A stretch of DNA of 64,000 nucleotides from an uncultured Clostridia bacterium (lineage in GTDB: Bacteria; Bacillota; Clostridia; Christensenellales; UBA1242), in assembly GCA_947630405.1 (NCBI GenBank), contig CANRHL010000001.1:20822-84821 (forward strand), in the 5' to 3' direction. The notes below the pieces were generated by a model. It saw nothing but the letters and a program-made list of their open reading frames with translations. It searched no databases and was not told the DNA's origin. Positions 4,307 through 32,397 of the stretch are shown in pieces (positions within the stretch are counted from its first letter, which is position 1; each line of letters begins with the position of its first letter). A program made the translations under genes and the position numbers.

Positions 4307-4805
4307 GAATTTAAACAATGAAACTCTAAACGATGATGACGAAATTGTGCTTATTGACTATTACGATAGAATACATCAGCAAATGATACACGGATTGCCC
4401 GTTACGAAAAAAGTTGCCAGATTTATGGAAAACAATAAAAAGAAAACTAGAAGAAAACAAAACGATTATGACTACTACACTAGGCCGCTAGAAAAATTTG
4501 ATGAAGAAGACCCAGACAAAATGCAATACTTTATTGATGAAAATTCGGACATTGAAAAGAATTTAGAATTGGCGGAACGAGAAAAATTGGAAGAATTGGA
4601 TAAAGAACACAAAACAACCATAATTGAAAACGCAATGATTGCCCTAACCCCAGAGCAGCAAGAAGTTGTGATTATGGCATACTACAAAAAAATGAGTTAT
4701 AGCGAAATTGCAAAAGAGTTGGGCATTAAAAAACCCTCCGTTTATGAACGAATGCACAACGCGGTGAAAAACATACGAAAATTTGTCGAAAATGGTCAAA
4801 ATTAA
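4296..4805 (+). CDS. sigma-70 region-4 type regulator (sigma-like HTH)
   Basis: C-terminal LTPEQQEVVIMAYYKKMSYSEIAKELGIKKPSVYERMHNAVKNIRKF. Confidence 0.7.
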   Translation: MDYENLNNETLNDDDEIVLIDYYDRIHQQMIHGLPVTKKVARFMENNKKKTRRKQNDYDYYTRPLEKFDEEDPDKMQYFIDENSDIEKNLELAEREKLEELDKEHKTTIIENAMIALTPEQQEVVIMAYYKKMSYSEIAKELGIKKPSVYERMHNAVKNIRKFVENGQN

Positions 4806-4956
4806 AAAATTTTCAACTTTTTTTCAAAAATTTTCTTAAAAATACCCTAACGATTTGCAATTTTATGTCCTCATAGATATAGAGGGGTCAAACAATTTTT
4901 GAAATTCTGGTTGGTGCGCACAACCAAAACTTTCAATAAAAATTTAAGGAGAAATA

Positions 4957-5397
4957 ATGAAAGAACATTACACAGTTAGAATTTATGACAAGCAACTGTC
5001 GGACAAAGTTGAAGGCCTATATAATAAATGTAAAGATTTATATTCTAGTCAAAATCCATTTTTAGTGGATTGCATTAGCAGGGGTGCGGAACTTATAGAA
5101 CACGATTTAGTTGGCGAGAATAAGAAAAACACAATTGCTTCCTTATATGATGAAATTCATTTAACTGTTAGGAAATTGGACAATCTTTTAAAACTTTGTG
5201 AAAAGAGTGCAAAAGAAACGATTGCCAACTTGTCAATCAATCAAAAACTTTTGTCTTGCAATTACAATATGCTTTTAGGATTGTCGGAAAACAACCCAAA
5301 ACCTAAAAACTTTATTGAAAATGGTATGTTTGATGATTTGCCAGAAAGATTAGGCGAATTATTGGAAGATATACTTAAACAAATTTTAGGGAAATGA
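4957..5397 (+). CDS. hypothetical protein, possible relaxosome accessory factor (by position only)
   Basis: Good RBS; its stop overlaps the relaxase start (ATGA at 5394-5397). Confidence 0.5.
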   Translation: MKEHYTVRIYDKQLSDKVEGLYNKCKDLYSSQNPFLVDCISRGAELIEHDLVGENKKNTIASLYDEIHLTVRKLDNLLKLCEKSAKETIANLSINQKLLSCNYNMLLGLSENNPKPKNFIENGMFDDLPERLGELLEDILKQILGK

Positions 5398-6584
5398 GTG
5401 TTCCTAATGTAAACTTTTTCATTGGATATGTGGATAGTTTAAAAGGGAAAAGCAGCGCAGATGAATATGTAAAGAATAATTTTGAAGCAAGACGATTTTA
5501 CAGCTCTGGTAAAGATTATGATTATGTTAAGTATGTAGCCACAGGTAGCAAAGAAAAACTTGATTATATTGCCTATTCTGGGAACAATGAGAAAAGCCAC
5601 GGAATATTTAACCCTAATGGGTTAATGTCGGCACAAGATATAAAAGAATTACGCAATAAATTAAGGAAAACTGCTAGTCCTATATGGCACGGTGTTATTT
5701 CGTTTACGGAAGATTTTGGAAATCAATTTTGCGACAATTATGAGAAAGCTTATGAGCTTATGAGAACTGAATTCCCTAAATTTTTTAAGGCGGCAGGACT
5801 AAACCCAGACAATATTGAGTGGTTTGCAGGTTTACACGAGAACACGGACAACAAGCATATACATTTTTCTTTCTTTGAAAAGACCCCTTTAAGAAAGAAA
5901 CAAAATAGTAAAAAATTATGCTATTCAAATGGATTTATAGTGCAAAAAGCAATAAATGATTTTAAAGTTAAGGTAGAATTGCGCCTTAAAAACTACACAA
6001 ACGATATTTCAATAGCAAGAAAAAGTATAACACGGACAACTGAAAAATTATTAAACACAGGAGATTATATGGAGAAATTAAAATCTCTAATCATTATTCT
6101 ACCCCGCAAAGGTAGAATGAGTTATGATAGCAAAAATATGCAAGAATATAGACCATATATAGATAGTATTATAAACACTATAATTAAAGCAAATAAGAAC
6201 TTAAAATACAAGTTTGACAATTTCTATGACCTATTGGGCAAAAGGGACAATCAAATTATTCAGGCATACACAAAATTAAAAATAGATTACACGGACAAAC
6301 TTATGCGAGATAAATGTATTAAAGACATTTATAGGCGTTTGGGCAACCTAGTTTTGTTTATGGCAAAAGAAATTCGAGCCGAGCAAGCAAAACTTGATAC
6401 CAACACAAGAAACCGCCTTTTACAAAAACGCATAGACAAGTTAAAGAGAAAAGCACTAATTAAAAAATGTATGCAATTAAATGACCTTGTTGACCAAGAA
6501 ATTATGAACGCATTTAAGGAATATTTGGACAAACTTGATGAAGCCAACTATAACCGATTAAAGGAAGAAGGGTTAATAGATTGA
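5394..6584 (+). CDS. conjugative relaxase (MobL/MOB-P-like, histidine triad)
   Basis: WHGVISF and LHENTDNKHIHFSF (HxxxxxxHxH metal motif); Tyr-rich N-terminus DYDYVKYV / LDYIAY. Confidence 0.7.
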   Translation: MSVPNVNFFIGYVDSLKGKSSADEYVKNNFEARRFYSSGKDYDYVKYVATGSKEKLDYIAYSGNNEKSHGIFNPNGLMSAQDIKELRNKLRKTASPIWHGVISFTEDFGNQFCDNYEKAYELMRTEFPKFFKAAGLNPDNIEWFAGLHENTDNKHIHFSFFEKTPLRKKQNSKKLCYSNGFIVQKAINDFKVKVELRLKNYTNDISIARKSITRTTEKLLNTGDYMEKLKSLIIILPRKGRMSYDSKNMQEYRPYIDSIINTIIKANKNLKYKFDNFYDLLGKRDNQIIQAYTKLKIDYTDKLMRDKCIKDIYRRLGNLVLFMAKEIRAEQAKLDTNTRNRLLQKRIDKLKRKALIKKCMQLNDLVDQEIMNAFKEYLDKLDEANYNRLKEEGLID

Positions 6585-8746
6585 AATTAGGTAAAAGGAT
6601 TATCTTAATTCTTATAACCTTATTTGCTTGTTATATATGTGGTTATTTATTAAATTTATTTGTTTCTAACAATTTTGTTTTTGAATTTAAAATATCTGTG
6701 GACTTAATGTTGGCAGGCAAAACCCTACTCTACACCTTTGAATTGTTTGCGGTATTTGCGGTTATTTACTTATTCATTTGGTTTAAAGGAATTGGCAAAA
6801 ACCCTAAAAAGATTTTGCAAGCAAATGAAAAGGATAAAGACATTTTCACAGGATTAGAACAAGCACATTTTCAAACAGATAAAGAAATTCAAAACAATTT
6901 TAGAACGATAGATTACGAAAATCTACCCAACGCAAAAATTGAAGGTATTGCAATTAAGACGGAAGAAACCAACAAAGGATACAAAGTTACATTTGCTAAC
7001 CCTGCCCACACTTTGATAATAGGAACAACGGGCTCTGGTAAAACAACCACCTTTATAAACCCAACCATACAAATATTGGCAAATACCTTTAATCAACCTT
7101 CTATGATTATTTCAGACCCAAAAGGGGAATTGTATGCGCTACACTCTAAAAGTTTGATAAAACGCGGATACGATGTAAGAATATTGGATTTAAGAAACCC
7201 TTATTGCTCATTAAGGTGGAATCCGTTAGAACACCCTTATGACCTATACCAAGAAATGCTAACTTTAAATGATAAAGTTATTTTGAACGAAGAAGAAGGT
7301 TATTTCATATTTGAAGGCAAGATTTATTACAGCGAAGAAGAAAAGAACGCTGCGGTGCAGGTGCGACAACAAGAAATCTTTGATGAAGTGTACGAAGATT
7401 TAAACGATATTTGTTCGGTGCTTTGCCCTATTAAAAATAAATCCGAGCCAATATGGGAAAGTGGTAGTAAAAACTTTATTTTGGCAATAGCACTTGCTAT
7501 GTTGGAAGATAGCGAAAACCCTAGTTTGGGTATGACAAGAGAAAAATTCAATTTCTACAACATAATGAAAATTGCCACTAACACGCAAAACGATTGTGAA
7601 GATTTAATGGCGTACTTTAAAAATAGAAGCCCAATTTCTAAAAGTGTTAGTTTGTCTAAACAAGTTTTAGACGCTAGTGATAAAACGCGCGGCTCATATC
7701 TATCTACAATCTTTGATAAATTGTCAATGTTTAGTGATATGAGTATTTGTTCGCTAACAAGTGCAAACGAAATAGATTTTAGCGAATTGCCAAATAAACC
7801 AACTGCCCTATTTTTGCAAATACCAGATGAAAAAGAAACACGCCATACACTTGCTGCTATGGTTATATTGCAAGCATATAAGGCACTTGTAGCAAAGGCA
7901 AACACCTATGCCGATTTAACTTTGCCGCGTAGTGTTTACTTTTTGTTAGACGAATTTGGTAACCTACCTAAAATTCACAAACTAGAACAAATGATTACGG
8001 TTGGCAGAAGCAGAAAAATATGGTTGGCGTTAGTTGTTCAATCTTATGCACAACTTGCAAAAGTTTATGATGACAAAACTGCCGACATTATAAAATCCAA
8101 CTGCAATATTCAAGTATTTATTGGTACAACTGACCTTAAAACAATAGAAGAATTTTCTAAAAAGTGTGGAAATTACTCTATTATGCAACGAAATGTAAGC
8201 TTTTCTTCTTCTAACGATAATGTTGGAAGTTCGGTAAGCATTAAGGAAAGACCACTAATCTACCCAACCGAATTGCAACAACTAAATAGCCCAGACAATA
8301 TGGGCAATGCAATAGTTAATGTATTTGGTTATCCACCAATTAAAAGCAAATATACACCAAGTTTTAAATGCAAACACTTCAACTTGGAAAAGACCAATCA
8401 ATTACTTTCGGAGGGCAAATATTTTAACGAAAAGAAAGTTTTATACAATATGCTAGACCGAAATGAGATTATCCTTTCAAATAAAGCAGGTGTGCCAATG
8501 CCAGATTTAGCACCATTTATTGAAAGTTTAATAATTCAAATTGAAAAACTAGATTTTGAAAGTTTAGGTTGCTTTGAATTAAAAATGGAAATGCTTAATG
8601 CGGTGGAAAAGAAAGATTTTAATAGATTAAGTAATATAGCAATTAAACTAGAAACCATTGCAAAAAACAGAAATAGCGAGGACTTTGCATTTGTTAAAAA
8701 CTTATGCGTAAAAGTTCAGCAGCTAAAAAGGTTGGCACGACAATGA
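6581..8746 (+). CDS. type IV coupling protein (VirD4/TraG family)
   Basis: N-terminal TM helices; Walker A GTTGSGKTT; Walker B YFLLDEFGNL; VVQSYAQL. Confidence 0.9.
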   Translation: MKLGKRIILILITLFACYICGYLLNLFVSNNFVFEFKISVDLMLAGKTLLYTFELFAVFAVIYLFIWFKGIGKNPKKILQANEKDKDIFTGLEQAHFQTDKEIQNNFRTIDYENLPNAKIEGIAIKTEETNKGYKVTFANPAHTLIIGTTGSGKTTTFINPTIQILANTFNQPSMIISDPKGELYALHSKSLIKRGYDVRILDLRNPYCSLRWNPLEHPYDLYQEMLTLNDKVILNEEEGYFIFEGKIYYSEEEKNAAVQVRQQEIFDEVYEDLNDICSVLCPIKNKSEPIWESGSKNFILAIALAMLEDSENPSLGMTREKFNFYNIMKIATNTQNDCEDLMAYFKNRSPISKSVSLSKQVLDASDKTRGSYLSTIFDKLSMFSDMSICSLTSANEIDFSELPNKPTALFLQIPDEKETRHTLAAMVILQAYKALVAKANTYADLTLPRSVYFLLDEFGNLPKIHKLEQMITVGRSRKIWLALVVQSYAQLAKVYDDKTADIIKSNCNIQVFIGTTDLKTIEEFSKKCGNYSIMQRNVSFSSSNDNVGSSVSIKERPLIYPTELQQLNSPDNMGNAIVNVFGYPPIKSKYTPSFKCKHFNLEKTNQLLSEGKYFNEKKVLYNMLDRNEIILSNKAGVPMPDLAPFIESLIIQIEKLDFESLGCFELKMEMLNAVEKKDFNRLSNIAIKLETIAKNRNSEDFAFVKNLCVKVQQLKRLARQ

Positions 8747-11700
8747 AAAAAACAAAATCTAAAAATATTTTAACAATTTTAATATTTTCTGTTTGCTTAT
8801 TCATTTCAATAGCACTTGCTTGTAGTGGATTGGTTAGCAGTGGCGGAAAATCTAATATGGGAGTTATAAGCCCATTTGTCGATGGCACTGTAATTATCCC
8901 AGATAATTCACTTGTGCATTGGGAATCCCCAGATTATAGCAATGCGAATTTAGAGCCAGACACCCCATATTCAAATGGTGTTTTAAGGCGGTATTTGTTT
9001 CTAGGAATTTACAATCAAGTAAGAAATGAAACCGTAAGCGGATTTCACTTCCCGCAATTTGTAAGATATTTCGAAGTGGCAAGAGTTGATGGTAGATACA
9101 TTTACGATGATGATGGTATTTTAGACACCAATTCTAGTGAAGAAGTTGTAAACTACCCTTCAATGCTTTATTCAACTGAAAGCACTTTGCCCGTTAAGAA
9201 AGACGCAGGCCCATTTTGGACAGACCATCAACCAAGTTTTAAAAACGGAGATTTGGAAGTAAACTTTTACTCCAACTCGACATCTTCGACATTCTATTAT
9301 GGCGTGCCGCGCGACCCTTCAAACAATTTTCACTCAATTTGCTACATAATAGATAAAGATTGTAAACCTTATATATCCAATCCAACAAAATTCAATGTAT
9401 ATCTAAACGCCACAGGGCAATACACCAACACTTTTTGGGGGAACACAAGTGGCAGTTATGGTATGAATTTTAATATGACCTATGACATTTCTATGGCAGC
9501 AAGAGATTGGAACAACTCGTTAAAGGCAAGTACGCCAAGCGGAACATATAAAGGCAAAACAATCTATTACTCACCGAAAGAATTTACTGCTATTGCAACA
9601 AACTTGAACAATTTATTGAAAATTAACGATGTTCAAATTGACCCGCTTTATGGAACTACTGTTGTGCCATTTAAAGATGGACACCACATAACCATAACCG
9701 ATGTTGGCATTACAAAGGTTGATTTGGAAAATGGCAGCGAGAACAACTACACTACCTATTATTGTATGATAGACAATAAATTGCCAGATGTTTCTTACAA
9801 CTATTCAAACACAAATGCCCTAGATTTAAGGAAAATAAGTTCAATCACAACTGAAAGCAGTGGTGCTAAAACACAAACAATCTATGAAGGCATTTTTAAA
9901 GACCAAGTACAAGTAAATTTTGGTGCGAACGAAGATGAAAGCCCAGAAACCGCCACCTACACTTTAAATGGCGAAACACACAACTTAACAAGCGGCACTT
10001 GGTTAAAACAGGAAGGCAGTTATGTTGTTACAATTAAAGATAGCGCAGGCAACACAACCATAAGCAAGTTTGATATAGATTGCACTAACCCATTTGCAAA
10101 CCTAAACCGAGTTAAAAATGATAATAACTATAAGGTTGCTAAATGGTATTTAACAACTATACCTAACGGATATAGCGGATATGGCACTTATTCGTTTTTA
10201 GAACGAGCAGACGCTTTAAATTACGCTTGCGAAATTGAAAAGCAAAATTTAGTTACAGAATATAATTTGGAACGAGTGGAAGATTTCGCCAACACGCACT
10301 TACTTGCAAAAGGAAATAGTGTTAAAGTTGGCAAGTATTGGTATTATAAATCAATAGACAATGACCAATTTTATGTTTATTACTTTGATGAGAACTCACT
10401 TAACCAAGCAATTCAACATTATGCTGAAAAGTTTGTTTCGGTGGAACATAAATATAATATCAATTCTTCATTAACACCAAATAACTATGGCAATATACTA
10501 GATAAAAGTATATATGACAATGTTGTTTCAAAAAATGGCATAAATGCTTATATGGGCAATAACTTTGTGTTTAGAACGGATAGCAATATGGAAAGTTATA
10601 AAATATATTGCGACTATGCCGAAGATAGCACCGAAGATTATAAGGAACTACAATACAACAAAGTTTTTTCAACCCAAGTTAATGGGTATGGACTTTACAA
10701 AATAAAGGAAATAGATTTTGTTGGACACGAAAGTTATTACTATCTATTTTTAGATAATCAGGCACCAATGCTAGACATTGAAGCAAAAATTTATGGCAAA
10801 GATAAGCTTATAAACCAATCTATATCCGTAAATGATATACCTAACAATGGCGAGCTTATCTATTATTATGAGAGTTTTAAAATAGCACAAGTTATAGAAG
10901 ATGATAAATGGTGGATTATGGAGATTAAAACACCAAAAGACACCGTTTTAAGATACACCTATTTAGATGAGTTGCCAAACTTTGGCAATCTCGGTGCAGG
11001 CGAATATTCAATTACAATAGCGGATAGAAATTCAAACAAATTTAATTTCAAAATATCCCTATTAGGAAAAGCACCAGAGGCAGTATTTCAAAACATAAAT
11101 GCCAACACTCAATTAAGGATAGATATTAAATGCAGCGAAGATTACAATTCTATAACCGAAATTAAGATTTATAGAAATGGAATTTGCTTAAATGCTGAAA
11201 ATGGATATGATGAATACCCTAATTTAGAAAATGATTTAATATTTATCAACCCATCTATCAAAACCTACACTTTTAACAAAGGCGGCACATACAAAGTTGA
11301 ATTGACCGACATATTTGGAAGAAGCATAACTTATGAATATAAGTTTGAAAAGGATTTGCCTGTTGGGGATTTAATTGGTGTTAAGCACAATGGCAAAACG
11401 AATAGCGAAGTTAGATTTACTTATAACTCATCAAAATATTATGTTGTTATAGAAAAGAATAGCGGTGTTTATACACCAGAAGAAAGCGAAAGTAACTTTA
11501 TCAAAACACTTATCTTTACGCCGAACGAAAATTTACAAGATTTTTATTCAATTAAGCTTATAGATAACACCGACCCAGAGAACTACAATATTTACAACTT
11601 TACAATCAAAACCATTAAACCTATCATCAATCTATTTGGAGTTGACCCTAATGGTACAACAGGCGGAAGTGTGTACGCACTATGGGATAGTGGCGAAGAA

Positions 11701-13119
11701 ATTTATTCTGCCACCTATTCACTAAATGGCAACACACAAGAATATAGAAAAGGACAAACTTTAACAATTGAAGGCAATTACACAATTACTTTAACTGATG
11801 AATTAGGAAATTCCACAACAATACAATTTGAAATAGACAAAAGCATTAACTTTGTTATTGCAGACCTTGATGGTAAAACTTATGAAATAGAAGATTTGGA
11901 CTATATCAATTTTGATATTAAAATAGTAAATAACGAGCCACTAAATGTAACCATTACAAAAAATGGCAATCCTTATGATTATGAATTTGGTTTAATGATT
12001 AGCGAAGAAGGATATTATGAAATTGTCCTTACTGACGAGTTTAACAACTCAATTTACTTTTACTTTACAATTGACAAAACACCACCATCCGCCACACTTT
12101 ATGGCGTAGAAGAATTTGGCAAAACGAATAAATCCGCTTGGGTTGTTTCAAATGACACCAATTTAACTTGTTGGTATGTTGTCAATGAAGCTTATAGAGA
12201 TAGTTATAAGCTTGGCGAAGAACTCACTAAAAGTGGTAAATATGTTGTCTATGTTGCAGATAGAGCAAACAATTTTGTTAGCTTTGAATTTCAAATAGAC
12301 AAAGAAATTGCGTTTGATATAAACACTTATCGAGGCGGAATTTCAAATGGCGGCGTGCGAATTATTGCTTATGAGAATTTAAAAATTTATATGGCAAAAG
12401 ATGAGCAAATGATAGATTATCAATTCGAACAAATTTTAAATGATGAGGGTGAATATTCATTTACAATAACAGACGAACTAGGAAATATGTATTCTAGTTA
12501 TTTCACAATAATAAACAAAGCAAAACAAAATTTACAACACTTGTTACAGGAAGACATTTCTATTAAATCAATTTCAAAAGACAATGAAACTTATGAGTAT
12601 GAACTTTTAGAAAATTCACTTTATCTTTATGATGAAGGCAAATACCTTATTTCAATTATAGACAACAAAACCAATAACGAATATTCATTTGAAATCACAC
12701 TTGATACTACCCCACCAACACTAGAAATTTTTGGTGTTGAAAATGGCGGCAAAACAAAAAATGTTGTTGTTTTGAAAAATGTATCGGAAACACCTTACGA
12801 ACTTATAATCTATGTTGATGGAGTTAGATTTGACTACAAACTTGGAGATAAAATTGAAAAATCTGGCAAGTTTGAAATTACACTAAAAGACGAAGCAGGC
12901 AACACAACCACTTACTCTTTTGAACGAGAATACTCATTCAATGCAGCAAGCATAGCAGTGTTTGTTGGACTTGGTGTTTTAGTTATTTTATTGATTATCT
13001 TGCTAATAAAATCTAGGCATCATTACTACAAAGAAAAGATTACGGAAGAAGAAATCAAAGAAACTTTGATTGATGATGATATAGACAGCAATGATAGCGA
13101 AAATACTGAAAATCAATAG
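8743..13119 (+). CDS. large surface protein / putative mating adhesin with Ig-like repeats
   Basis: ATG at 8743 overlaps the T4CP stop (ATGA). Signal peptide ...FISIALA|CSG. About eleven repeats of G-Y-(I/V)T(L/I)-D-GN-...F-(I/L)D by my count. C-terminal TM helix plus acidic tail, no LPxTG. Confidence 0.75.
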   Translation: MKKTKSKNILTILIFSVCLFISIALACSGLVSSGGKSNMGVISPFVDGTVIIPDNSLVHWESPDYSNANLEPDTPYSNGVLRRYLFLGIYNQVRNETVSGFHFPQFVRYFEVARVDGRYIYDDDGILDTNSSEEVVNYPSMLYSTESTLPVKKDAGPFWTDHQPSFKNGDLEVNFYSNSTSSTFYYGVPRDPSNNFHSICYIIDKDCKPYISNPTKFNVYLNATGQYTNTFWGNTSGSYGMNFNMTYDISMAARDWNNSLKASTPSGTYKGKTIYYSPKEFTAIATNLNNLLKINDVQIDPLYGTTVVPFKDGHHITITDVGITKVDLENGSENNYTTYYCMIDNKLPDVSYNYSNTNALDLRKISSITTESSGAKTQTIYEGIFKDQVQVNFGANEDESPETATYTLNGETHNLTSGTWLKQEGSYVVTIKDSAGNTTISKFDIDCTNPFANLNRVKNDNNYKVAKWYLTTIPNGYSGYGTYSFLERADALNYACEIEKQNLVTEYNLERVEDFANTHLLAKGNSVKVGKYWYYKSIDNDQFYVYYFDENSLNQAIQHYAEKFVSVEHKYNINSSLTPNNYGNILDKSIYDNVVSKNGINAYMGNNFVFRTDSNMESYKIYCDYAEDSTEDYKELQYNKVFSTQVNGYGLYKIKEIDFVGHESYYYLFLDNQAPMLDIEAKIYGKDKLINQSISVNDIPNNGELIYYYESFKIAQVIEDDKWWIMEIKTPKDTVLRYTYLDELPNFGNLGAGEYSITIADRNSNKFNFKISLLGKAPEAVFQNINANTQLRIDIKCSEDYNSITEIKIYRNGICLNAENGYDEYPNLENDLIFINPSIKTYTFNKGGTYKVELTDIFGRSITYEYKFEKDLPVGDLIGVKHNGKTNSEVRFTYNSSKYYVVIEKNSGVYTPEESESNFIKTLIFTPNENLQDFYSIKLIDNTDPENYNIYNFTIKTIKPIINLFGVDPNGTTGGSVYALWDSGEEIYSATYSLNGNTQEYRKGQTLTIEGNYTITLTDELGNSTTIQFEIDKSINFVIADLDGKTYEIEDLDYINFDIKIVNNEPLNVTITKNGNPYDYEFGLMISEEGYYEIVLTDEFNNSIYFYFTIDKTPPSATLYGVEEFGKTNKSAWVVSNDTNLTCWYVVNEAYRDSYKLGEELTKSGKYVVYVADRANNFVSFEFQIDKEIAFDINTYRGGISNGGVRIIAYENLKIYMAKDEQMIDYQFEQILNDEGEYSFTITDELGNMYSSYFTIINKAKQNLQHLLQEDISIKSISKDNETYEYELLENSLYLYDEGKYLISIIDNKTNNEYSFEITLDTTPPTLEIFGVENGGKTKNVVVLKNVSETPYELIIYVDGVRFDYKLGDKIEKSGKFEITLKDEAGNTTTYSFEREYSFNAASIAVFVGLGVLVILLIILLIKSRHHYYKEKITEEEIKETLIDDDIDSNDSENTENQ

Positions 13120-13158
13120 GAATTCTATTGATATTTTTAGTAAGCAGGATAAGAGTTA

Positions 13159-13297
13159 GACACAAAATCAAAATTTGTGCCCTCAAAACGCCCTATTTTA
13201 TAGGGGTTTTGCGGTGCGCCACCACCCTATGGGCAGTGGCTCAATTTTGTGTCAGCACTCTCAACCTTAAAGCAAGTGGGAAACCCACTTCTTTTTT
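13159..13297 (+). other. GC-rich structured intergenic element (three-way junction plus terminator); ncRNA, attenuator or oriT/ssi candidate
   Basis: P1 gacacaaaat (13159-13168) pairs with attttgtgtc (13244-13253). P2 is 13184-13211. P3 is gccac (13218-13222) with gtggc (13236-13240). Terminator aagtggg-aaa-cccactt plus T-run at 13274-13297. Confidence 0.5.
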
Positions 13298-13327
13298 CTT
13301 ACAAATAAATTAAATTATGGAGGATTT

Positions 13328-13618
13328 ATGAACACATTTTTAGCAATTGATTTTAACCCAATTTTAGCACCTGTATTAGAAGTGCTTAACGCAATACTTT
13401 GGCCAGCAATTGGTTTGGTTGGCTCTATTGGAACTATTTATTGTATTATTCTAGGCGTGAAGTTGGCAAAGAGTGATGAAGCGGGCTCACGAGAAAAAGC
13501 AAAGAAAGATTTGATTGGTGCAATTATTGGCTTTGTGGTTATCTTTGTTTTAATCGTAGGTTTGAAGATTGCTATGCCAATTTTACAAGATTGGGTTAGT
13601 ACACAAATTGTTGCGTAG
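13328..13618 (+). CDS. small two-TM membrane protein, VirB2/TrbC-like by size, topology and position
   Basis: 96 aa with two hydrophobic helices flanking a KSDEAGSREKAKKD loop; first gene of the T4SS membrane block. Confidence 0.5.
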   Translation: MNTFLAIDFNPILAPVLEVLNAILWPAIGLVGSIGTIYCIILGVKLAKSDEAGSREKAKKDLIGAIIGFVVIFVLIVGLKIAMPILQDWVSTQIVA

Positions 13619-13627
13619 GTAAAATTT

Positions 13628-14146
13628 ATGAATAAAAAAGTTTTAATTATAGGCGGTGTTATAATCGCAGTTTTGGTGGTTGTTCTAATTGTTATCTTTG
13701 GCGGCGCAAGTACAACAAGCAATATGGTAACCGAAGAAGAATTGGAACATACCATTTCTAGCATAACTTGTGAAATTGATAACGAACAAGACATTGAATA
13801 TAAAACTTCAATTTTTGTAAATGATATTCAATTTGACAACGAAATACAAAATAAAGTTTATAAAAAAATTAAATTAAATCATTCAAAAGAAATAAATTCA
13901 TTGGGCGTGGCATTTATTGTTAAACCCGAACAAGATACAACCTTTACTATTGAACTTGTAAAAAATGAACAAGTGCTAACAACAAAAACTTTGACCTTAA
14001 AAAGTGGGCAAGTTGGAAATGTTGGTTTGGTATTAAAGGAAGCGGTTAACATTTTGCCAACTGATGAATATGCAATTAAATTTAGTCAAAGTGAAAATAC
14101 AAGTTTTGTCTTTGACACCACACTATTCTTTTTTGACGAGGTATAA
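13628..14146 (+). CDS. membrane-anchored T4SS-associated protein (function unknown)
   Basis: N-terminal TM helix (VLIIGGVIIAVLVVVLIVIF) followed by a soluble domain. Confidence 0.45.
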   Translation: MNKKVLIIGGVIIAVLVVVLIVIFGGASTTSNMVTEEELEHTISSITCEIDNEQDIEYKTSIFVNDIQFDNEIQNKVYKKIKLNHSKEINSLGVAFIVKPEQDTTFTIELVKNEQVLTTKTLTLKSGQVGNVGLVLKEAVNILPTDEYAIKFSQSENTSFVFDTTLFFFDEV

Positions 14147-14148
14147 AA

Positions 14149-15531
14149 ATGAATTGGCTAACAGATTGGATTTTTGAACTTTTGTATGGTTTTCAAAAGA
14201 CAATTTGTTATATCATTGATTTCATTAGAGAAATCTTTTACACTCTTGCAGGAATTAAGACAGTTAATATTGAAGGGGAACAAACTGATTTACTTTCACA
14301 CTTTGTTCTGTCCGACACGGTTAAAACAACTTTCTTTTACATTTTCTTAATAGCTATTGTTTTGCTAGTTGTATTTGTTTTGGTGGCAATTATACGAAGC
14401 GAATATGCAAATGGCGAGAATAAAAAATCCAAGACATTGATTTTGGGTAAGGCATTTCAAAGTTTTTTGATATTCTTGCTTGTGCCTTTTATTTTAATTG
14501 CCGGCATAACACTTACAAATGTTATAATGTCCGCCATAAATGCTAGTATGAATCCTTACACTCTACAAGCAGGCGGACAAGCAACAATAGGTGGACAAAT
14601 ATTGGTTACTTGCGGACAATATGCCTTTATTGGAGATGCTGGCAGCAGGGCTGAAATTGAACGAATGTTCTTAACCGGCGAATTAAGTTATTTTGATATA
14701 AATGTTGTTAGTCAATACTATAACTTGCGAAGCTTGGACTTTTTAATTGGTATTGTTGGCTCGGTTGTGATAATGGTTATGTTTGTTATGAGTGCAATAA
14801 CATTTATACAAAGAATATTTGATATTGTGCTTTTGTATATCATATCCCCTATTAGCGTAAGTACAATTCCCGTAGATGATGGTAACAGATTTAGAATTTG
14901 GCGTGATATGACAATATCAAAAGTTTTGGGTGCTTATGGCATTATTTTGTCTATGAATTTATTTTTCATCATTATGCCACAAATACAAGCAATAACTTTC
15001 TTTGATAACGCGTTTAAAAATGGAATTGTGCAAATTTTGTTCTTAATTGGTGGTGCGTTTGCGGTTACAAAAGCAAACTTGGTTATTGCACAACTAACAG
15101 GCAATCAAGCAGGCAACAACGAAACACAACAACTTATTCGCAATATTCAAACGGGCGGCAACATTGTCAAATCCACTGTGGGTGCAGGGGTTATGGCAGG
15201 TGGCGCGCTATTAGGTGGCAAAAGGTTTGTGGACACTAAAAAGACCACTCGTTCGTTTGCAAGTGGGTTTAAAAACTCATTTACTACTCCACCTAGCAAA
15301 AGTTATCTAAACAAAGAACACCCAAGTAAGATAGCACAAATTGGTGGGCTTCCTACAAGAATAGCAACAATGCCAATAGGTATGATAAAAGATTTTGCAT
15401 CTGGCGGTATTGTTGGTGTTGGTAAGAACTTTATACCACGTGCTAGAAATGTATTAAGTGGAGATAGCATTATCAACCACGCACAAGGTAAACCAACTTC
15501 AAAGGAGCATATTGATGAGAATAATTCCTAA
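14149..15531 (+). CDS. polytopic membrane protein, VirB6/TrbL-like channel component
   Basis: Multiple TM helices and a Gly-rich C-terminal tail, immediately upstream of VirB4. Confidence 0.55.
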   Translation: MNWLTDWIFELLYGFQKTICYIIDFIREIFYTLAGIKTVNIEGEQTDLLSHFVLSDTVKTTFFYIFLIAIVLLVVFVLVAIIRSEYANGENKKSKTLILGKAFQSFLIFLLVPFILIAGITLTNVIMSAINASMNPYTLQAGGQATIGGQILVTCGQYAFIGDAGSRAEIERMFLTGELSYFDINVVSQYYNLRSLDFLIGIVGSVVIMVMFVMSAITFIQRIFDIVLLYIISPISVSTIPVDDGNRFRIWRDMTISKVLGAYGIILSMNLFFIIMPQIQAITFFDNAFKNGIVQILFLIGGAFAVTKANLVIAQLTGNQAGNNETQQLIRNIQTGGNIVKSTVGAGVMAGGALLGGKRFVDTKKTTRSFASGFKNSFTTPPSKSYLNKEHPSKIAQIGGLPTRIATMPIGMIKDFASGGIVGVGKNFIPRARNVLSGDSIINHAQGKPTSKEHIDENNS

Positions 15532-18136
15532 AAATACAAAAGTTAAAATAAAATTTTATAAAGATATAGGAATATATGACATAGTTTTAGCAGGCATAGC
15601 ATTGGCATTTATTGCCCTATTTGTTTCTAGCAATTTGCCTAACAAATATATGTTTGCAATTGGTGTTTTGGCTATTGTTGCACCTATGTATATTCCTTTG
15701 GGTGATATAAAACTTTATCAAGCAGTTGGTTATGGGATTAAGTTTGGCATTGCACAAAAAACCTTTTTAAAAAAGAAAAAGGGAAACAATCATATTAGTG
15801 TTATTGTGCCTTACTCCACAATTAAAGAAAATTTAATTGTTCAAAAAGACCATACGCTTACAGGCGTGATAGAAGTTAAACCCATTGAATTTAACTTATT
15901 AAGCGAAAATAAGCAAAATCATTTGATTGATGGTGTTATTTCTTCGACACTCAAAAATGTTGGCGTGTTGCAAGAATATGACTTAATAAAGTTGGATAAA
16001 CCTATCATTTTTGATAGTTATTTGAAAAATGAACTAACGCGCATACAAAAACTTATTGCAGAAAATGAAAATAACAATTTAAAGGAAGATGAGTTTAGAA
16101 AGCGAGTTGAAATTATAGAAGATAGAATAAACTTAATAGATAGTTTAAATTCAAATGAAAAGATTTATGCTAGTGCTTATTACATAGCAATACACGATAT
16201 TGATAAAAGAAGTTTAAATAATACACTAGATATTATAGAGCAAACATTAAAGAACAATAATTTAGAGGCAAAAAGGTTAAACAACAAAGAACTAGCAATA
16301 TTTTTGAAATATTCTTATGATAAAGATTTTGACGAACGAGAGTTTGATAAAATTGAAGAAAAAGATTATATAAGGCATATATACCCTAACTCTGTTCAGT
16401 TTAAAACCCTATCCACAAAACAAAATGACAAAACTTTAACGCATTTTATAATAACTGACTATCCACTAAAAGTGGATAATGCTTGGGGACAAGATTTATT
16501 CAATATTCCTAACACAAAAGTTGTTATGAAAGCAAAACCTGTGGATAAATACAAGGCCATTAAAAGAATAGATAACGCAATAAACGAGTTAATGTCGCAA
16601 AACACATTAGGCAAAGCAAGCTCTCAAATTGACAAGCAAACACATTTGGAAAGTTTGCAAATGTTGTTAGAGGGATTGCAAAATGATAATGAGGTATTTT
16701 TTGACATTACAATGATAATAACAGCTTATGACAAAGGAAAGGAAACCACAAATAAAAAATTTGTTAGAAGAAAGTTAAGAGAAATGGGTTTTAAATTTAG
16801 CGAAATGTTTGGCAGACAAATTGAAAGTTATTTTTCTTCAAATATCAACACTTACAACAAAACAAAAATATCACGAGGGATAAATTCTTCTTCAATTGCG
16901 GCGGCGTTCCCATTTGTTAGCAATGCAATATTAGATGACAATGGTTTGTTAATAGGCGAAAACCAACTACCTACTTTTGTGGACTTTTTTAGGCGAGATG
17001 ATGAACGAGTAAATTCAAACACGGTTATTATTGGCAAATCTGGTAGTGGAAAATCTTATGCAACAAAAATGTTGTTAGCAAACTTGGCAAGTGATAACGC
17101 AAAAGTGTTTATCCTAGACCCAGAAAACGAATATGGAACTTTGGCAAGCAATTTGTGTGGAAAAGTTTTAGATGTTTCATCTTCAAAATATGGAAGAATA
17201 AACCCATTTCATATAATAATGAGTTTAGACGATGAAAACCAAGATGGCAGCAACAACTCTTTCTACTCTCACTTGCAGTTTTTGGAAGAATTTTTTAGGT
17301 TAATCCTAGAAGGCATAAATGCGGATAGTTTGGAACTTTTAAATAAAGTTATTGTAGATGTATATAACAAAAAAGGAATTACACCTAAAACAGATTTAAC
17401 CACATTAAAGGCAAAGGACTACCCTATATTCCAAGATATTGCCGAAGAAATAGACAATAGGATTACAAGAGAAAAAGATGAGTACAATTTGTCCTGCTAT
17501 AAAGTTTTAGCAAACTATATGAGCAAATTTAGGCGTGGTGGTAGAAATTCTGCCCTATGGAACGGATTTACTACTTTTAACCCAACTGAAAATTTTGTTT
17601 GTTTCAACTTTCAAAAACTATTAGCAAATAAGAACAACCTTATTGCCAACGCACAAATGCTTTTAGTTTTAAAATGGTTAGACAACGAAGTTATTAAAAA
17701 TAGAGATTACAATTTGCTTAATGGAACTGAAAGAAAAATTGTTATAGCAATAGATGAAGCGCACGTGTTCATTGATGAAAAATTCCCTATTGCGTTAGAT
17801 TTTATGTATCAACTTGCAAAACGCATAAGGAAATACAATGGTATGCAAATTGTTATTACTCAAAACATTAAAGATTTTGTTGGTAGCCCAGAGATAGCAC
17901 GCAAATCTTCCGCAATTATAAATGTAAGCCAATATTCATTTATCTTTTCGCTTTCGCCAAATGATATAACTGACCTTTGCGCTTTGTATGAAAAGGCAGG
18001 ACAAATAAACGAAAACGAAACGGACAATATTGTAAACTTGCCGCGCGGAAGTGCTTTTTTAATTACAGGCCCAGCAAATAGGACAAATATTAGAATTGTG
18101 GCAACCCCACAAATTAAACAATTATTTGAAAATTAG
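15515..18136 (+). CDS. VirB4-family conjugation ATPase with N-terminal VirB3-like TM segment
   Basis: AAGGAG then ATG at 15515. Walker A GKSGSGKSY; Walker B IAIDEAHVF. Confidence 0.9.
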   Translation: MRIIPKNTKVKIKFYKDIGIYDIVLAGIALAFIALFVSSNLPNKYMFAIGVLAIVAPMYIPLGDIKLYQAVGYGIKFGIAQKTFLKKKKGNNHISVIVPYSTIKENLIVQKDHTLTGVIEVKPIEFNLLSENKQNHLIDGVISSTLKNVGVLQEYDLIKLDKPIIFDSYLKNELTRIQKLIAENENNNLKEDEFRKRVEIIEDRINLIDSLNSNEKIYASAYYIAIHDIDKRSLNNTLDIIEQTLKNNNLEAKRLNNKELAIFLKYSYDKDFDEREFDKIEEKDYIRHIYPNSVQFKTLSTKQNDKTLTHFIITDYPLKVDNAWGQDLFNIPNTKVVMKAKPVDKYKAIKRIDNAINELMSQNTLGKASSQIDKQTHLESLQMLLEGLQNDNEVFFDITMIITAYDKGKETTNKKFVRRKLREMGFKFSEMFGRQIESYFSSNINTYNKTKISRGINSSSIAAAFPFVSNAILDDNGLLIGENQLPTFVDFFRRDDERVNSNTVIIGKSGSGKSYATKMLLANLASDNAKVFILDPENEYGTLASNLCGKVLDVSSSKYGRINPFHIIMSLDDENQDGSNNSFYSHLQFLEEFFRLILEGINADSLELLNKVIVDVYNKKGITPKTDLTTLKAKDYPIFQDIAEEIDNRITREKDEYNLSCYKVLANYMSKFRRGGRNSALWNGFTTFNPTENFVCFNFQKLLANKNNLIANAQMLLVLKWLDNEVIKNRDYNLLNGTERKIVIAIDEAHVFIDEKFPIALDFMYQLAKRIRKYNGMQIVITQNIKDFVGSPEIARKSSAIINVSQYSFIFSLSPNDITDLCALYEKAGQINENETDNIVNLPRGSAFLITGPANRTNIRIVATPQIKQLFEN

Positions 18137-28812: not shown

Positions 28813-29925
28813 ATGCAACAACTATCAATTTTTGATGAGTTGGGGGATGAATTTAAAGAATATAAAGCAATAAAAAGCAACGATTGGTTATGGAGTTTTA
28901 AAGATTATCCACAAAAAAATGGATTAAAAGTGTTTAGTTGTTTTGCAGGTGGTGGTGGCTCTACTATGGGATATAAACTTGCAGGTTATGATGTTATAGG
29001 TTGTTTAGAGATAGACAAAAGAATGAATAACATTTACAAGTTAAACCACAATCCAAAATACAATTTTCTTATGGATATACGAGAATTTAACAATACACCT
29101 AACAACGAATTGCCAAAAGAATTGTTTGACTTGGATATTTTAGATGGCAGCCCACCCTGCACAACATTTTCAATTTGCGGAAAACGAGAAGCAACTTGGG
29201 GAAAATTGAAAAAGTTTAAAGAGGGACAAAAAGAACAAACACTTGATGACCTACCCTTCATTTTCATTGAAACGGTAGACAAATTAAAACCTAAATTTGT
29301 TGTTATGGAAAATGTGGAAGGATTAACACAGGGCAATGCTTGGAGATATGTTCAAAGAATTTATGCTAGTTTTAAAAAAATTGGATATAAAGTTAAGCAT
29401 TGGTTGTTAAAGGGCGAATTTATGGGCATACCACAAGCACGCCATAGAATATTCTTCATAGCAACAAAATTAGATATTGATTTAGACAAAATCAATATGG
29501 CATTTAACTATAAACCAATCTTATTTAAAGAGATAAAAAGTAAAAAAGGACTACCCTTACCCAAATGGGTTGAAAAACTTGCAGAGAACGCTAAATATGG
29601 CGAGAGAAATTTAGAAAATGCAAGTTTAAGATTGCGAGGCAAGGCGTCTTTTTTTAATTATTGCTTTGTGTATGATGACAAAATTTCGCCAACTCTCACA
29701 GCAAGAGCAAATTTAATTAGGTGGGACACTAAAAACTTTTTATCCAAGCAAGATATGTTAAGCGTTTCGACATTCCCACAAGATTTTAAATTTATAAATG
29801 AAGCACCAGACCAAATGGGATTTGTTTGTGGAATGAGTGTTCCGCCAATAATGATAAAGCGAATTGCGGAAAGATTATACCCATATTTAATAGACAACGA
29901 ATTAAGGAGTGAAAATGGACAATAG
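28813..29925 (+). CDS. DNA (cytosine-5)-methyltransferase, orphan (no adjacent endonuclease seen)
   Basis: FSCFAGGGGS (motif I), GSPPCTTFS (motif IV), ENVEGL (VI), QARHRIFF (VIII), GMSVPP (X). Confidence 0.9.
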   Translation: MQQLSIFDELGDEFKEYKAIKSNDWLWSFKDYPQKNGLKVFSCFAGGGGSTMGYKLAGYDVIGCLEIDKRMNNIYKLNHNPKYNFLMDIREFNNTPNNELPKELFDLDILDGSPPCTTFSICGKREATWGKLKKFKEGQKEQTLDDLPFIFIETVDKLKPKFVVMENVEGLTQGNAWRYVQRIYASFKKIGYKVKHWLLKGEFMGIPQARHRIFFIATKLDIDLDKINMAFNYKPILFKEIKSKKGLPLPKWVEKLAENAKYGERNLENASLRLRGKASFFNYCFVYDDKISPTLTARANLIRWDTKNFLSKQDMLSVSTFPQDFKFINEAPDQMGFVCGMSVPPIMIKRIAERLYPYLIDNELRSENGQ

Positions 29926-30562
29926 AACATTAACTGCAAAAGAAATAAAGAAATTTTTTGAAAATTGTAAAGGCCATAAATTTGAATGTTTTTATAAAAT
30001 GGTGTTTGCTTATAGATTGTCGCGCTATGAAATGTTAAATTTGCAATGGGAAGATATAAATTTTGACAATGATACAATTACAATCTACCCCGTTAAGTAT
30101 GTTATAGACCACAAGCGAGCAAAGAACTATTGGCAAAAATATAAAAATACTGAATTTGGTAGAACTTACCCTTTGTTGCCAGATATTAGAAATTTGCTTA
30201 TCAAACGAATGGAAAAGCAAATGGAAAATTCTAAAAATGAAAATTTCAATGCGGACAACACAAAATATGTTTGTATAGATAAAAATGGCAAACTTATCAA
30301 TGCGAACACTTTAAGCAGAAATTTAAAATACATAACCAAGAAAGCAAAACTACCAACTATTTTAATTTCGGACTTGAAACATAGTGCGGAAGATTTTTTC
30401 TTTAAGAAAACAACAAGCATTGACTTTTATAGGTGTTGGACACGCGCCGACATTTTGCAAAGACAAGAAAATGTTTATGGCGATTTTAATTTATTAAGAG
30501 GCAAAAGATTTGTTAAAGAGTTAGACAATTTAATTTCAAACGAGAGAGAACTCGAAATGTGA
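29915..30562 (+). CDS. tyrosine-recombinase catalytic-domain paralog with degenerate active site and no N-terminal DNA-binding domains
   Basis: Aligns by eye to the C-terminal half of the adjacent integrase. Arg I (YRLSRYE) and a Tyr (NVYGDF) are kept, but HDLRHS is replaced by SDLKHS. Confidence 0.55.
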   Translation: MDNRTLTAKEIKKFFENCKGHKFECFYKMVFAYRLSRYEMLNLQWEDINFDNDTITIYPVKYVIDHKRAKNYWQKYKNTEFGRTYPLLPDIRNLLIKRMEKQMENSKNENFNADNTKYVCIDKNGKLINANTLSRNLKYITKKAKLPTILISDLKHSAEDFFFKKTTSIDFYRCWTRADILQRQENVYGDFNLLRGKRFVKELDNLISNERELEM

Positions 30563-30569
30563 GGTTGCT

Positions 30570-30779
30570 ATGAAAAGTTATGAATTATGCAAATGTATGT
30601 TTACTGAATATCCAGATTGCGTTGGTGTGCAAGAACTTATGCAAATGTTGGGTATAAAGAAAACAAAAACTTATGAATTGCTACAAAGTGGAGAAATAAA
30701 AGCAAAAAAGATTGGAAAAGATTATAAAATTTCAAAAGTAAATGTTATTGCCTACATAATTGGAGAAGAACAATTATGA
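30570..30779 (+). CDS. xis: excisionase-family HTH DNA-binding protein
   Basis: 69 aa, VGVQELMQMLGIKKTKTYELLQSGEIKAKKIG; its stop overlaps the int start (ATGA). Confidence 0.75.
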   Translation: MKSYELCKCMFTEYPDCVGVQELMQMLGIKKTKTYELLQSGEIKAKKIGKDYKISKVNVIAYIIGEEQL

Positions 30780-32035
30780 CAGGTAGATTGGCATTAAAAA
30801 ATGGTTTATGGTATGCAGTTTTAAGTTATAAAGATGAAAACAACCAATTTAAGCAAAAATGGATAAATACTCATTTAAAAGAACGCGGAAATAAAAAAGA
30901 AGCTCAAAAGATTTTAAATGAACAACTGCAAACATTTAATCCACACGAAGAAAAACCAAAACAAAATGAAACTAAAACCGAAGATATACTTTTAGTTGAC
31001 TATGTCGAAAAAGTTTTTAATGAAAAAAGCAGCAGTTTAAGCCCTATAACAGCTAGTGCTTATGAATCAATAATTAAAATTATCAAATTATATTTCAAAG
31101 ATGATTTGCTAAAAGATATAACCTATAAAGATATTGAAAGGTTTTATGATTATTTAAGATATGAACGCAAAGTTGGCAACACCACTGTAAAACATTACGC
31201 CAATGTTCTATCCCCTGCTTTTAGACAAGCATATAGAGATGATTTAATCCCTAAAAACCCTTTTGAATTTCTACCTAAAATTAAAAGAGATAAGCGGAGT
31301 ATTGAATTTTACAATAAAAATGAATTGGAAAAACTTTTTCAATATACCGACAACACTGATATTGGTTTGATAGTTAGAATAGCAGCATATTATGGATTTA
31401 GGCGAAGTGAAGCACTTGGACTTAAATGGAAAGCAATAGATTTTGACGCAAAAACCATAAAGGTTGAACACAAAGTTGTAAAAGTTAAGAAAATATTATA
31501 TAGGCAAAATAAACTTAAAACGGAAGCGAGCTCACGAACTTTGCCTTTAATACCAGAAATTGAACAATTATTACTCCAACGAAAGAAAGAAATTGAAAAA
31601 AACAAGACATTGTATGGAAAATCTTACAACGATAAATACAATGAATATATTTTTGTAAATGATATTGGTGATTTGATGTTGCCAGACCACATTACGCAAA
31701 AATTTAACAGAATATTAAAGCAAAACAAGTTAAAACATATTCGTTTTCACGATTTAAGACATAGTTGTGCGAGTTTACTTGTTGCGAACAATGTTCCTAT
31801 GAAAAACATACAAGAGTGGTTAGGACACGCAAATTTCAATACAACCGCCGATGTATATTCACATTTGGACTTTTCTGGGAAAGTTAAATCTGCTAATATT
31901 ATAGAAGCTCAATTGTCGGTGGGTGTTGAAGATGAAAAAGAGTTAGAAAGGGAAATTGAAGAACTAAAAAAGAAAATTCGTGAGAAAGAACAATTAAAAA
32001 AAGCTTTAAAACTTAAAGACAATGAAATGAACTAG
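30776..32035 (+). CDS. int: site-specific tyrosine integrase
   Basis: N-terminal arm-binding type domain (LWYAVLSYKDENNQFKQKWI); YGFRRSEALGLKW, KTEASSRTLPL, FHDLRHSCAS, LGHANFNTTADVYSH. Confidence 0.95.
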   Translation: MTGRLALKNGLWYAVLSYKDENNQFKQKWINTHLKERGNKKEAQKILNEQLQTFNPHEEKPKQNETKTEDILLVDYVEKVFNEKSSSLSPITASAYESIIKIIKLYFKDDLLKDITYKDIERFYDYLRYERKVGNTTVKHYANVLSPAFRQAYRDDLIPKNPFEFLPKIKRDKRSIEFYNKNELEKLFQYTDNTDIGLIVRIAAYYGFRRSEALGLKWKAIDFDAKTIKVEHKVVKVKKILYRQNKLKTEASSRTLPLIPEIEQLLLQRKKEIEKNKTLYGKSYNDKYNEYIFVNDIGDLMLPDHITQKFNRILKQNKLKHIRFHDLRHSCASLLVANNVPMKNIQEWLGHANFNTTADVYSHLDFSGKVKSANIIEAQLSVGVEDEKELEREIEELKKKIREKEQLKKALKLKDNEMN

Positions 32036-32266: not shown

Positions 32267-32299
32267 ACAAAAAAAGTTTCAGCAATAATTTGCTGAAAC
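32267..32299 (-). terminator. intrinsic terminator downstream of tRNA-Arg
   Basis: gtttcagca / tgctgaaac stem, with an A-run on the plus strand (T-run on the minus strand). Confidence 0.65.
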
Positions 32300-32320
32300 C
32301 CCCTATAAAATAGGTGTTTT

Positions 32321-32397
32321 TGGTGCACCCAGAGGGATTCGAACCCCCGGCCTCCGCGTCCGTAGCGCGGCGCTCTATCCAGCTGGGCTATGAGTGC
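32321..32397 (-). tRNA. tRNA-Arg (anticodon ACG)
   Basis: Reverse complement GCACTCA TA GCCCAGCTGGATAGAGC G CCGCG CTACGGA CGCGG AGGCC GGGGGTTCGAATCCCTC TGGGTGC A CCA. Confidence 0.95.

Follow-up and report, generated by a model that had tools for sequence, protein, structure and literature searches.

A probable origin of transfer with an RP4-type nick sequence in a MobL-bearing integrative and conjugative element of an uncultured gut Clostridia bacterium

Gene context and architecture of the element

The whole stretch of DNA analyzed here (the window; 64,000 nt) corresponds to positions 20822 to 84821 of contig C1 in a genome of 0.95 Mb with 35% G+C. The element under study is located in an integrative and conjugative element (ICE), where it fills a gap of 208 nt between the gene of a 1471-aa surface protein upstream and that of a VirB2-like pilin downstream. 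The relevant genes and features are the following:

5394-6584, plus strand: MobL-family relaxase, 396 aa (Pfam PF18555 MobL, 5.8e-32)
6581-8746, plus strand: type IV coupling protein (Pfam T4SS-DNA_transf, 4.4e-52)
8704-13119, plus strand: adhesin-like surface protein, 1471 aa, with its stop codon just 5' of the element
13142-13153, minus strand: invariant block with the predicted nick (plus strand AAGCAGGATAAG; minus strand CTTATCCTGCTT)
13152-13168: nick-proximal arm of a long inverted repeat, AGAGT-ta-GACACAAAAT (from folds, duplex predictions in 19 homologues, and covariation)
13169-13243: repeat interior, 75 nt, holding hairpin 1 (13184-13211) and hairpin 2 (13218-13240)
13244-13261: distal arm of the inverted repeat, ATTTTGTGTC-agc-ACTCT (from folds, duplex predictions, and covariation)
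13274-13297, plus strand: conserved hairpin AAGTGGG-aaa-CCCACTT with the T-run CTTTTTTCTT (from terminator scan and conservation)
13328-13618, plus strand: VirB2-like pilin of the type IV secretion system (T4SS), first gene after the element (Pfam T4SS_pilin, 4.8e-08)
15458-18136: VirB4-like ATPase of the same ICE
30776-32035: tyrosine integrase, beside a tRNA-Arg gene (32321-32397)

In addition to its MobL match, the relaxase shows a weak match to PF03432 (MobA/VirD2 nuclease domain) and contains the 3H-type (three-histidine) motif LHENTDNKHIH; it is presumed to be the enzyme acting on the element. A homologue of the 1471-aa surface protein also precedes the copy of the element at locus L013. 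Both in the window (29909-30562) and at L013 (4597-5283), a short phage-integrase-family protein of 217 to 228 aa is followed by xis and then by a full integrase; at L013, this module comes directly after the copy, with no T4SS genes in between.

The original prediction for this gap had described a GC-rich island folding into a three-way junction with a terminator behind it, and this anatomy was recovered. The G+C content of the island is 0.38 to 0.43, compared with approximately 0.30 in the surroundings. The closing helix pairs gacacaaaat (13159-13168) with attttgtgtc (13244-13253), the two interior hairpins are found at 13184-13211 and 13218-13240 (the latter being gccac..ccc-tat-ggg..gtggc), and the local alternative pairing of cacaaa with tttgtg exists in the sequence. 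The terminator, composed of a hairpin at 13274-13290 and a T-run up to 13297, was evident from both the sequence and a terminator scan, and the three-way junction is the RNA minimum-free-energy fold of 13155-13300. The closing helix extends further outward, with AGAGT (13152-13156) pairing with ACTCT (13257-13261), which brings the total to 15 pairs; the resulting long inverted repeat is imperfect and contains a bulge. Homology with related loci starts 5' of the region boxed originally, at approximately 13105-13140. Hairpin 1 of the interior is made up of an A-run, a stem, and a T-run. A 61-aa open reading frame, which had been predicted over the element, is not conserved in the homologues; an ATG-initiated frame of 27 codons is present in the relative G022 and absent from the window. 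An ARAGORN scan for tRNA and tmRNA genes found none in the element.

Folded as RNA, the segment 13155-13300 reaches -54.5 kcal/mol, compared with -31.7 ± 3.5 kcal/mol for shuffled sequences (z = -6.5; 0 of 200 shuffles as good). The minus strand folded as RNA is on par with the plus strand (z = -6.4), and the single-stranded DNA fold of the minus strand has an energy of -39.9 kcal/mol (z = -8.1). Since both strands and also the DNA fold well, the fold itself discriminates neither between the strands nor between RNA and DNA.

Conservation, covariation, and linkage to MobL relaxases

Same-genus whole-genome searches yielded full-length relatives with 71 to 79% identity in two genomes (G022 and G024), whereas elsewhere separate pieces of the element matched. 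Scanning collections of genomes and metagenomes for exact patterns yielded loci L010 and L013 to L015, and searches of the order and of a sister genus by pattern and BLAST added genomes G258, G180, G315, G480, G469, G493, G203, G487, G292, and G443. Three further genomes (G018, G027, and G002), first found via the terminator alone, proved to hold complete copies. A blastn search of PLSDB plasmids with the element gave no match.

The aligned copies have in common the invariant block, the covarying helix, an interior, a short spacer, and a hairpin of the form NNGGG-loop-CCCNN. The block AAGCAGGATAAG is identical in approximately 20 homologues, including those retrieved through other parts of the element. 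The interior has a length of 72 to 75 nt in 18 of 19 copies, and its sequences fall into several unrelated classes. Covariation in related loci, by which the original prediction had proposed to judge the fold, was found in the repeat arms across approximately 20 homologues. In a 12-sequence alignment, 93% of the arm cells are paired and 6 of the 15 pairs have changed on both sides; the covariation score was reached by none of 500 shuffles, and the signal was lost when the partner strand was slid. Compensatory variants of the arms include GACAC/GTGTC, GACTC/GAGTC, GATTC/GAATC, and GCATC/GATGC, those of the outer helix AGAGT/ACTCT, GGAGT/ACTCC, GGAAT/ATTCC, and GGAGC/GCTCC. The conserved hairpin sits 15 to 20 nt past the distal arm in all homologues, and its stem covaries as well (AAGTGGG/CCCACTT, AAACGGG/CCCGTTT, AAATGGG/CCCATTT). 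Genuine wobble (G-T) pairs amount to two cases on the plus strand versus four on the minus strand and thus give no sign of an RNA-specific strand.

These data bear on an alternative account of the gap, namely, that ordinary tandem terminators behind the adhesin gene are accompanied by a long-range helix arising by chance. Two terminator-like hairpins are indeed present, but the helix is kept by compensatory changes at approximately 20 loci, the whole module recurs intact in contexts unrelated to one another, and the fold z-scores are -6 to -8; we consider this account scarcely credible.

On the minus strand, positions 13151 to 13144 within the invariant block read TATCCTGC. The 8-mer matches both the nick core ATCCTG, which MOBP relaxases such as RP4 TraI and Agrobacterium VirD2 require, and the MOBP nick consensus (C/T)ATCCTG(C/T); the nick sequence of RP4 and Tfs4 is TATCCTGC (PMC3772185). 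By this comparison, the predicted cut falls in the minus strand after G (13145) and before C (13144). Within the ICE, YATCCTGY has a single match; a second one in the 64 kb is located far outside of it. The rough chance of finding this 8-mer on either strand of an arbitrary invariant 12-mer is approximately 1.5e-4. On the cut strand, the distance from the end of the inverted-repeat arm to the predicted nick is 7 nt in the window and 8 nt in most homologues. MOBP origins, too, have an inverted repeat directly 5' of their nick region, and their nick regions are highly conserved with the adjoining repeat being more variable (PMC3772185). The conservation observed here, with a fixed block next to a repeat that is kept in structure and variable in sequence, is the pattern typically expected of an origin of transfer (oriT).

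Linkage of the element to relaxase genes was assessed among 81 genomes of the sister genus, in which relaxases 54 to 66% identical to that of the window are present at seven loci. In six of six assessable ICEs (G438, G486, G477, G494, G258:C5, and G338:C2), a copy is located on the same contig and the same strand approximately 6.6 kb past the relaxase end, as in the window, and the pilin gene (MSMLAAIDFNP...) directly follows it. At the seventh locus, in G446, the copy is on a different contig from the relaxase. Two compact elements (G036:C6 and G032:C2) encode relaxases 38 to 39% identical to that of the window and have the site directly after the relaxase gene, in the order RHH gene, relaxase, site, xis, int, tRNA-Thr. 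Their sites consist of AACAGGATAAGCGGAAGAAAC, a repeat, and a hairpin; TTATCCTG is kept on the template strand, next to arms that are entirely different. A third compact element (G032:C10) has the variant TTATGCTC. A relaxase clade with 43 to 45% identity (G043, G026, and several sister-genus genomes) has no recognizable copy near the relaxase. A presumably cognate HUH relaxase is encoded in the same element as the site, and in relatives, site and relaxase are inherited together.

On the basis of the MOBP-type nick sequence beside an inverted repeat and the linkage in cis to MobL relaxases in related elements, we interpret the module at approximately 13140-13300 as the probable oriT of the ICE, with a probability of roughly 0.8. 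Among the roles named in the original prediction, the oriT option is the one supported by the nick sequence and the relaxase linkage; the attenuator, riboswitch, and sRNA options find no support. Several points count against an oriT: the site is 6.6 kb from the relaxase gene and not adjoining it in the window family, the relaxase clade with 43 to 45% identity has no recognizable copy nearby, the same-genus genomes with orphan copies have no relaxase homologue, the one mapped MOBL nick (in pLS20) is unlike ATCCTG, and the plus-strand terminator and the hairpin with A-run and T-run are RNA-type features that an oriT need not have.

The anatomy of the sequence, its conservation and covariation, and the linkage to relaxase genes are observed, whereas we infer nicking, transfer polarity, and mobilization from what has been established for MOBP, MOBQ, and MOBL relaxases. 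The MobL relaxase would recognize the minus (template) strand, comprising the repeat arms 13261-13244 and 13168-13152 and, 7 to 8 nt further on, TATCCTG/C (the slash denoting the nick). It would bind the nick-proximal arm and the single-stranded TATCCTG, cut after the G (minus strand 13145/13144), and stay on the 5' end. The coupling protein would then hand the relaxase to the T4SS, and the minus strand would exit in the 5'-to-3' direction, such that entry into the recipient begins with the side of the adhesin, coupling-protein, and relaxase genes and ends with the T4SS genes and the repeat. On the transferred strand, the repeat would refold as a hairpin and present the second nick site for the final cleavage and re-ligation. 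Together with the hairpin 13274-13290, the inner hairpins are part of the same conserved module, and they may bind accessory proteins.

A stable DNA fold on the strand predicted to be transferred would also suit a single-strand origin or priming site (sso/ssi), whose hairpins recruit RNA polymerase or primase in the recipient, instead of or alongside an oriT function. The single-stranded DNA fold is very stable, selection in the arms acts on structure and not on sequence, and the location fits. An sso/ssi leaves unexplained, however, why TATCCTGC is invariant beside the repeat and why distant relaxases retain it with other arms. ssoA-type origins carry the CS-6 hexamer TAGCGT/A in a terminal loop and the RSB at the foot. 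TAGCGW does not occur within 13140-13300, the one TAGCGA upstream is located inside the adhesin gene, and no primase gene was identified; this reading appears very unlikely, although a single-strand initiation site is conceivable as a second function.

Known transfer origins show both parallels to the module and differences from it. RP4/IncP-type (MOBP) oriT, the T-DNA borders of Ti plasmids, and the Helicobacter pylori tfs4 oriT share the 8-nt nick sequence TATCCTGC, and RP4-type origins resemble the present module in having the inverted repeat immediately 5' on the cut strand, with a conserved nick and a variable repeat (PMC3772185). In contrast to the RP4 type, the relaxase belongs to the MobL family rather than MOBP, the repeat comprises 15 pairs and a bulge around a structured interior of 72 to 75 nt instead of a short loop, and the element is integrative and resides in a Gram-positive-type gut Clostridia metagenome-assembled genome. 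MOBL is the family closest to MOBP, and its prototype, the oriT of pLS20, likewise has a relaxase of the Pfam MobL family, a nick in the template strand, a position far from the relaxase gene, and T4SS genes downstream of the oriT (PMC5313138); its polarity is the one predicted here. Unlike here, the pLS20 nick lies in a stretch with 73% G+C beside GGCTTTTTGC..GCAAAAAGCC that lacks ATCCTG (PMC5313138). The relaxase of the window is only distantly related to that of pLS20, and the oriT lies downstream of the relaxase gene in the window and far upstream in pLS20. Very few origins of transfer have, to our knowledge, been mapped in Gram-positive and uncultured-gut elements, and in the MOBL family we know of pLS20 as the only mapped site. 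Because this sole mapped MOBL nick is unlike ATCCTG, a MOBP-type nick sequence for the MobL clade of the window is one that we infer. The interest of the locus lies in the scarcity of mapped MOBL origins, in the RP4-type nick sequence, and in the family of oriT-only islands that is revealed. If the oriT interpretation is correct, TATCCTG/C would serve as a simple searchable signature by which the transfer origins of an entire family of ICEs and integrative mobilizable elements (IMEs) in gut Clostridia could be found. It would also flag oriT-only islands that depend on helpers, a possible route for defense cargo among small-genome bacteria.

Around the module, ATAGAA(A) motifs are repeated in many copies, e.g., after the hairpin at L065 to L073 and at L012 4838-4850 (examples being CATAGAACG, GCATAGAAAGG, and AATAGAAAATT); they could be binding sites of an accessory or regulatory protein.

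RNA-type features and likenesses to recombination sites

Another view is that the junction between the adhesin operon and the T4SS genes functions as a cis-acting RNA, i.e., an attenuator, a riboswitch-like gate, or an sRNA, and controls read-through from the former to the latter at 13274-13297. This view is in line with the strong three-way-junction fold, with the plus-strand terminator and T-run kept in all homologues, with the A- and U-runs flanking hairpin 1, and with the ability of the 5' arm, in the window and in L015, to pair alternatively with a copy close by. Furthermore, the pilin start codon of the window follows the terminator at a distance of only approximately 30 nt, and the T4SS genes therefore need some read-through or an unrecognized promoter. 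On the other hand, the Rfam scan that the original prediction had suggested matched no known RNA family: with 4227 families of Rfam 15 and a threshold as permissive as E <= 10, the region 12500-14000 gave chance-level matches, none of which was on the element or overlapped 13120-13300. The interior, which would form the ligand pocket, is unrelated between homologue groups; the sole invariant block is outside the fold, on its 5' side, and is identical to a relaxase nick sequence; the fold of the minus strand is as good as that of the plus strand, with wobble pairs showing no strand bias; and no anti-terminator pairing conserved across groups was found. Moreover, copies are located behind divergently oriented genes (L054 and L057) and, in compact IMEs, directly after relaxase genes. 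Taken together, a regulatory RNA seems quite unlikely, and the three-way junction should not be listed as a new one without transcript evidence, which removes a false lead.

The segment 13274-13290 followed by CTTTTTTCTT has the features of a Rho-independent terminator and probably ends transcription of the upstream operon on the plus strand. The T-run after the conserved hairpin is good in the window family and poorer in compact IMEs. The hairpin 13274-13297 may be a site for an accessory protein and at the same time terminate the upstream operon, and it could have an additional RNA-level role. A promoter scan of the plus strand found no promoter. In some copies, the 5' block looks like a promoter (TTTACA-17-TAGACT); this reading was rejected, since L006 and L008 have CGGATT or CGGACT in place of the -10 hexamer and the variable positions covary with the distal arm.

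A further view is that the element represents a relic or an active site of site-specific recombination, i.e., an att arm or a module junction of a serine or tyrosine recombinase. In line with this, the element sits where different gene modules meet, its interior resembles the ICE's own tRNA-proximal att flank, and AGACTCAAAATC, present in many arms, equals the anticodon stem-loop of tRNA-Leu(CAA). A complete serine-recombinase island, in L015 and in G258, bears the element at the distal end. At G180:C1, a 57-nt tRNA-Leu(caa) copy, extending from the anticodon loop to CCA, is joined to the nick block and the proximal arm. The fusion point is exactly at CTCAAAATC (L034 and L044 correspond to G180:C1:140784-140855, L045 to 139147-139232), and a distance of 1.6 kb separates the tRNA duplicate from the intact tRNA and from a large serine recombinase that is truncated. 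Yet such a junction was seen only once, in G180, and it looks like the product of a deletion at a 9-nt microhomology between the oriT arm and the anticodon loop. Arms vary freely with compensation (GATTC, GCATC, GACAC), and the likeness to tRNA-Leu is therefore not a family feature. Genome G000 has no serine recombinase, and the window contains no direct repeat of the tRNA-Arg end. A recombination site, active or relict, is thus a remote prospect. An invertible segment was also rejected, because the 75 bp between the inverted sites are too short for inversion.

The element also resembles integron attC sites, with which it shares an imperfect palindrome with a conserved foot and a variable center, a conserved extrahelical base, a near-constant length, and a location at boundaries between cargo genes. 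The attC core sites R''/R' have the sequences RYYYAAC/GTTRRRY. The arms GACACAAAAT/ATTTTGTGTC lack R''/R' boxes, and there is no integron integrase, so that an attC was rejected; the recombinases near the copies are phage-type integrases with xis or large serine recombinases. In contrast to attC, the invariant sequence is located outside the palindrome, and there is one copy per ICE at a fixed place beside the transfer genes. None of the rival readings explains that the nick sequence stays invariant while the adjoining repeat is replaced.

The likeness of the interior to the att flank deserves a description of its own. Hairpin 1 and its flank (window 13176-13210) are identical to the reverse complement of approximately 32292-32325 at 29 of 34 positions. 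The corresponding identity between hairpin 1 and the tRNA flank at the integrase end is 25 of 28 in G438 and 20 of 21 in G022, and in each of the three cases none of 300 shuffles was as good. The paired sites are 13184-13211 and 32293-32320 in the window, 4914-4934 and 6855-6875 at L012, and L065 and L077 4102-4124. The variant differs by lineage, with CCCTATnnnATAGGG at both places in the window and CCCCTAAAATAAAGGG at both in G438; in compact IMEs, the likeness is weak. The G022 interior resembles the tRNA-Arg(tct) 3' end and terminator as present on G000:C21. It is conceivable that the oriT exceeds a nick site with a hairpin, in that its fixed-length loop copies the att flank of its own ICE, with a stretch resembling a tRNA 3' end and the terminator hairpin that lies next to the tRNA at the ICE end, and changes together with it between ICE lineages, but we hold this tentative extension to be rather doubtful. 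Like hairpins are native tRNA terminators in the genus, and hence the likeness of hairpin 1 may reflect a shared terminator "dialect" and not a functional link. Recurrence of the hairpin at both places of the ICE could stem from a site for a shared protein, from a duplication, or from a genus-typical terminator. If the extension holds and both sites are read by one protein (Int, Xis, or an accessory factor), excision would be physically linked to nicking.

At G000:C21:13548-13721 (L002), a second, direct copy of the 16-nt tRNA-Arg(tct) 3' end (TGGTGCGTCAAGAGGG) lies at a distance of 158 nt from the gene, and the two copies enclose a structured insert; the arrangement resembles a scar or a mini-insert at an att site.

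Copies on islands without a relaxase gene

The pattern RCAGGATAAG-N7-10-CAAAAT gave 36 matches in 26 of the 81 genomes, and the reversed pattern used as a control gave 0. Approximately 30 of the 36 matches are located away from any close relaxase. One of these, in G476, was rejected as a true copy: it lacks the repeat and is a chance match. The orphan copies sit on integrative islands with xis-int, with a large serine recombinase, or with defense-like cargo. Specifically, 2.4-kb xis-int mini-elements at tRNA-Lys (G022, G024, and L010) and serine-recombinase islands at tRNA-Leu bear copies, and cargo stretches with copies include an HNH protein and a pair of a cyclase and a membrane protein resembling a defense system. 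The six same-genus genomes with orphan copies contain no relaxase homologue at E <= 1e-10, and any helper would therefore have to come from outside. The distribution of the copies suggests that relaxase-less islands hitch rides on conjugative elements such as the ICE of the window, and possession of the module would permit their mobilization in trans.

Integrative islands with an oriT only, in which defense genes are concentrated near the oriT, have been described (bioRxiv 10.64898/2026.01.13.699239). These iOriTs resemble the orphan copies in that the module occurs without relaxase and T4SS, is often located beside defense-like cargo, and outnumbers the copies on ICEs (bioRxiv 10.64898/2026.01.13.699239). 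They were studied in six nosocomial species, whereas the copies reported here are present in uncultured gut Clostridia of approximately 1 Mb, with mobilization being presumed. If the extended reading of the oriT outlined above holds, the many relaxase-less copies would make up an extensive network, so far undescribed, of islands with an oriT only in tiny-genome gut Clostridia, serine-recombinase and defense islands among them.

Several further features of the islands were observed. At L015 (1546-4216) and L033 (G258:C30), a 2.7-kb unit has tRNA-Leu(cag) at one end and an oriT-like copy at the other; it encodes a large serine recombinase of 514 aa, the 3' end of which overlaps tRNA-Leu(cag), followed by a transglutaminase-like gene, a 130-aa gene, and the copy. 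In many orphan copies, the conserved hairpin is followed by a strong extended -10 promoter (TGTTATAAT/TGTTATACT), a palindrome (ATGGACT..AGTCCAT), and a conserved gene for a protein of 79 to 84 aa without Pfam match, as exemplified by L053 1560-3080, L014 800-1063, and L015 4440-4805. At L053, a cyclase-like gene and a gene for a membrane protein come after these features and resemble a defense pair. The xis-int mini-elements contain two 80-nt direct repeats 5' of the copy (L012 4519-4716 and L010 1-230), and integrase arm-type repeats TTTATTAGACAA are located at L012 6705-6836, with an inverted copy at 4615-4627.
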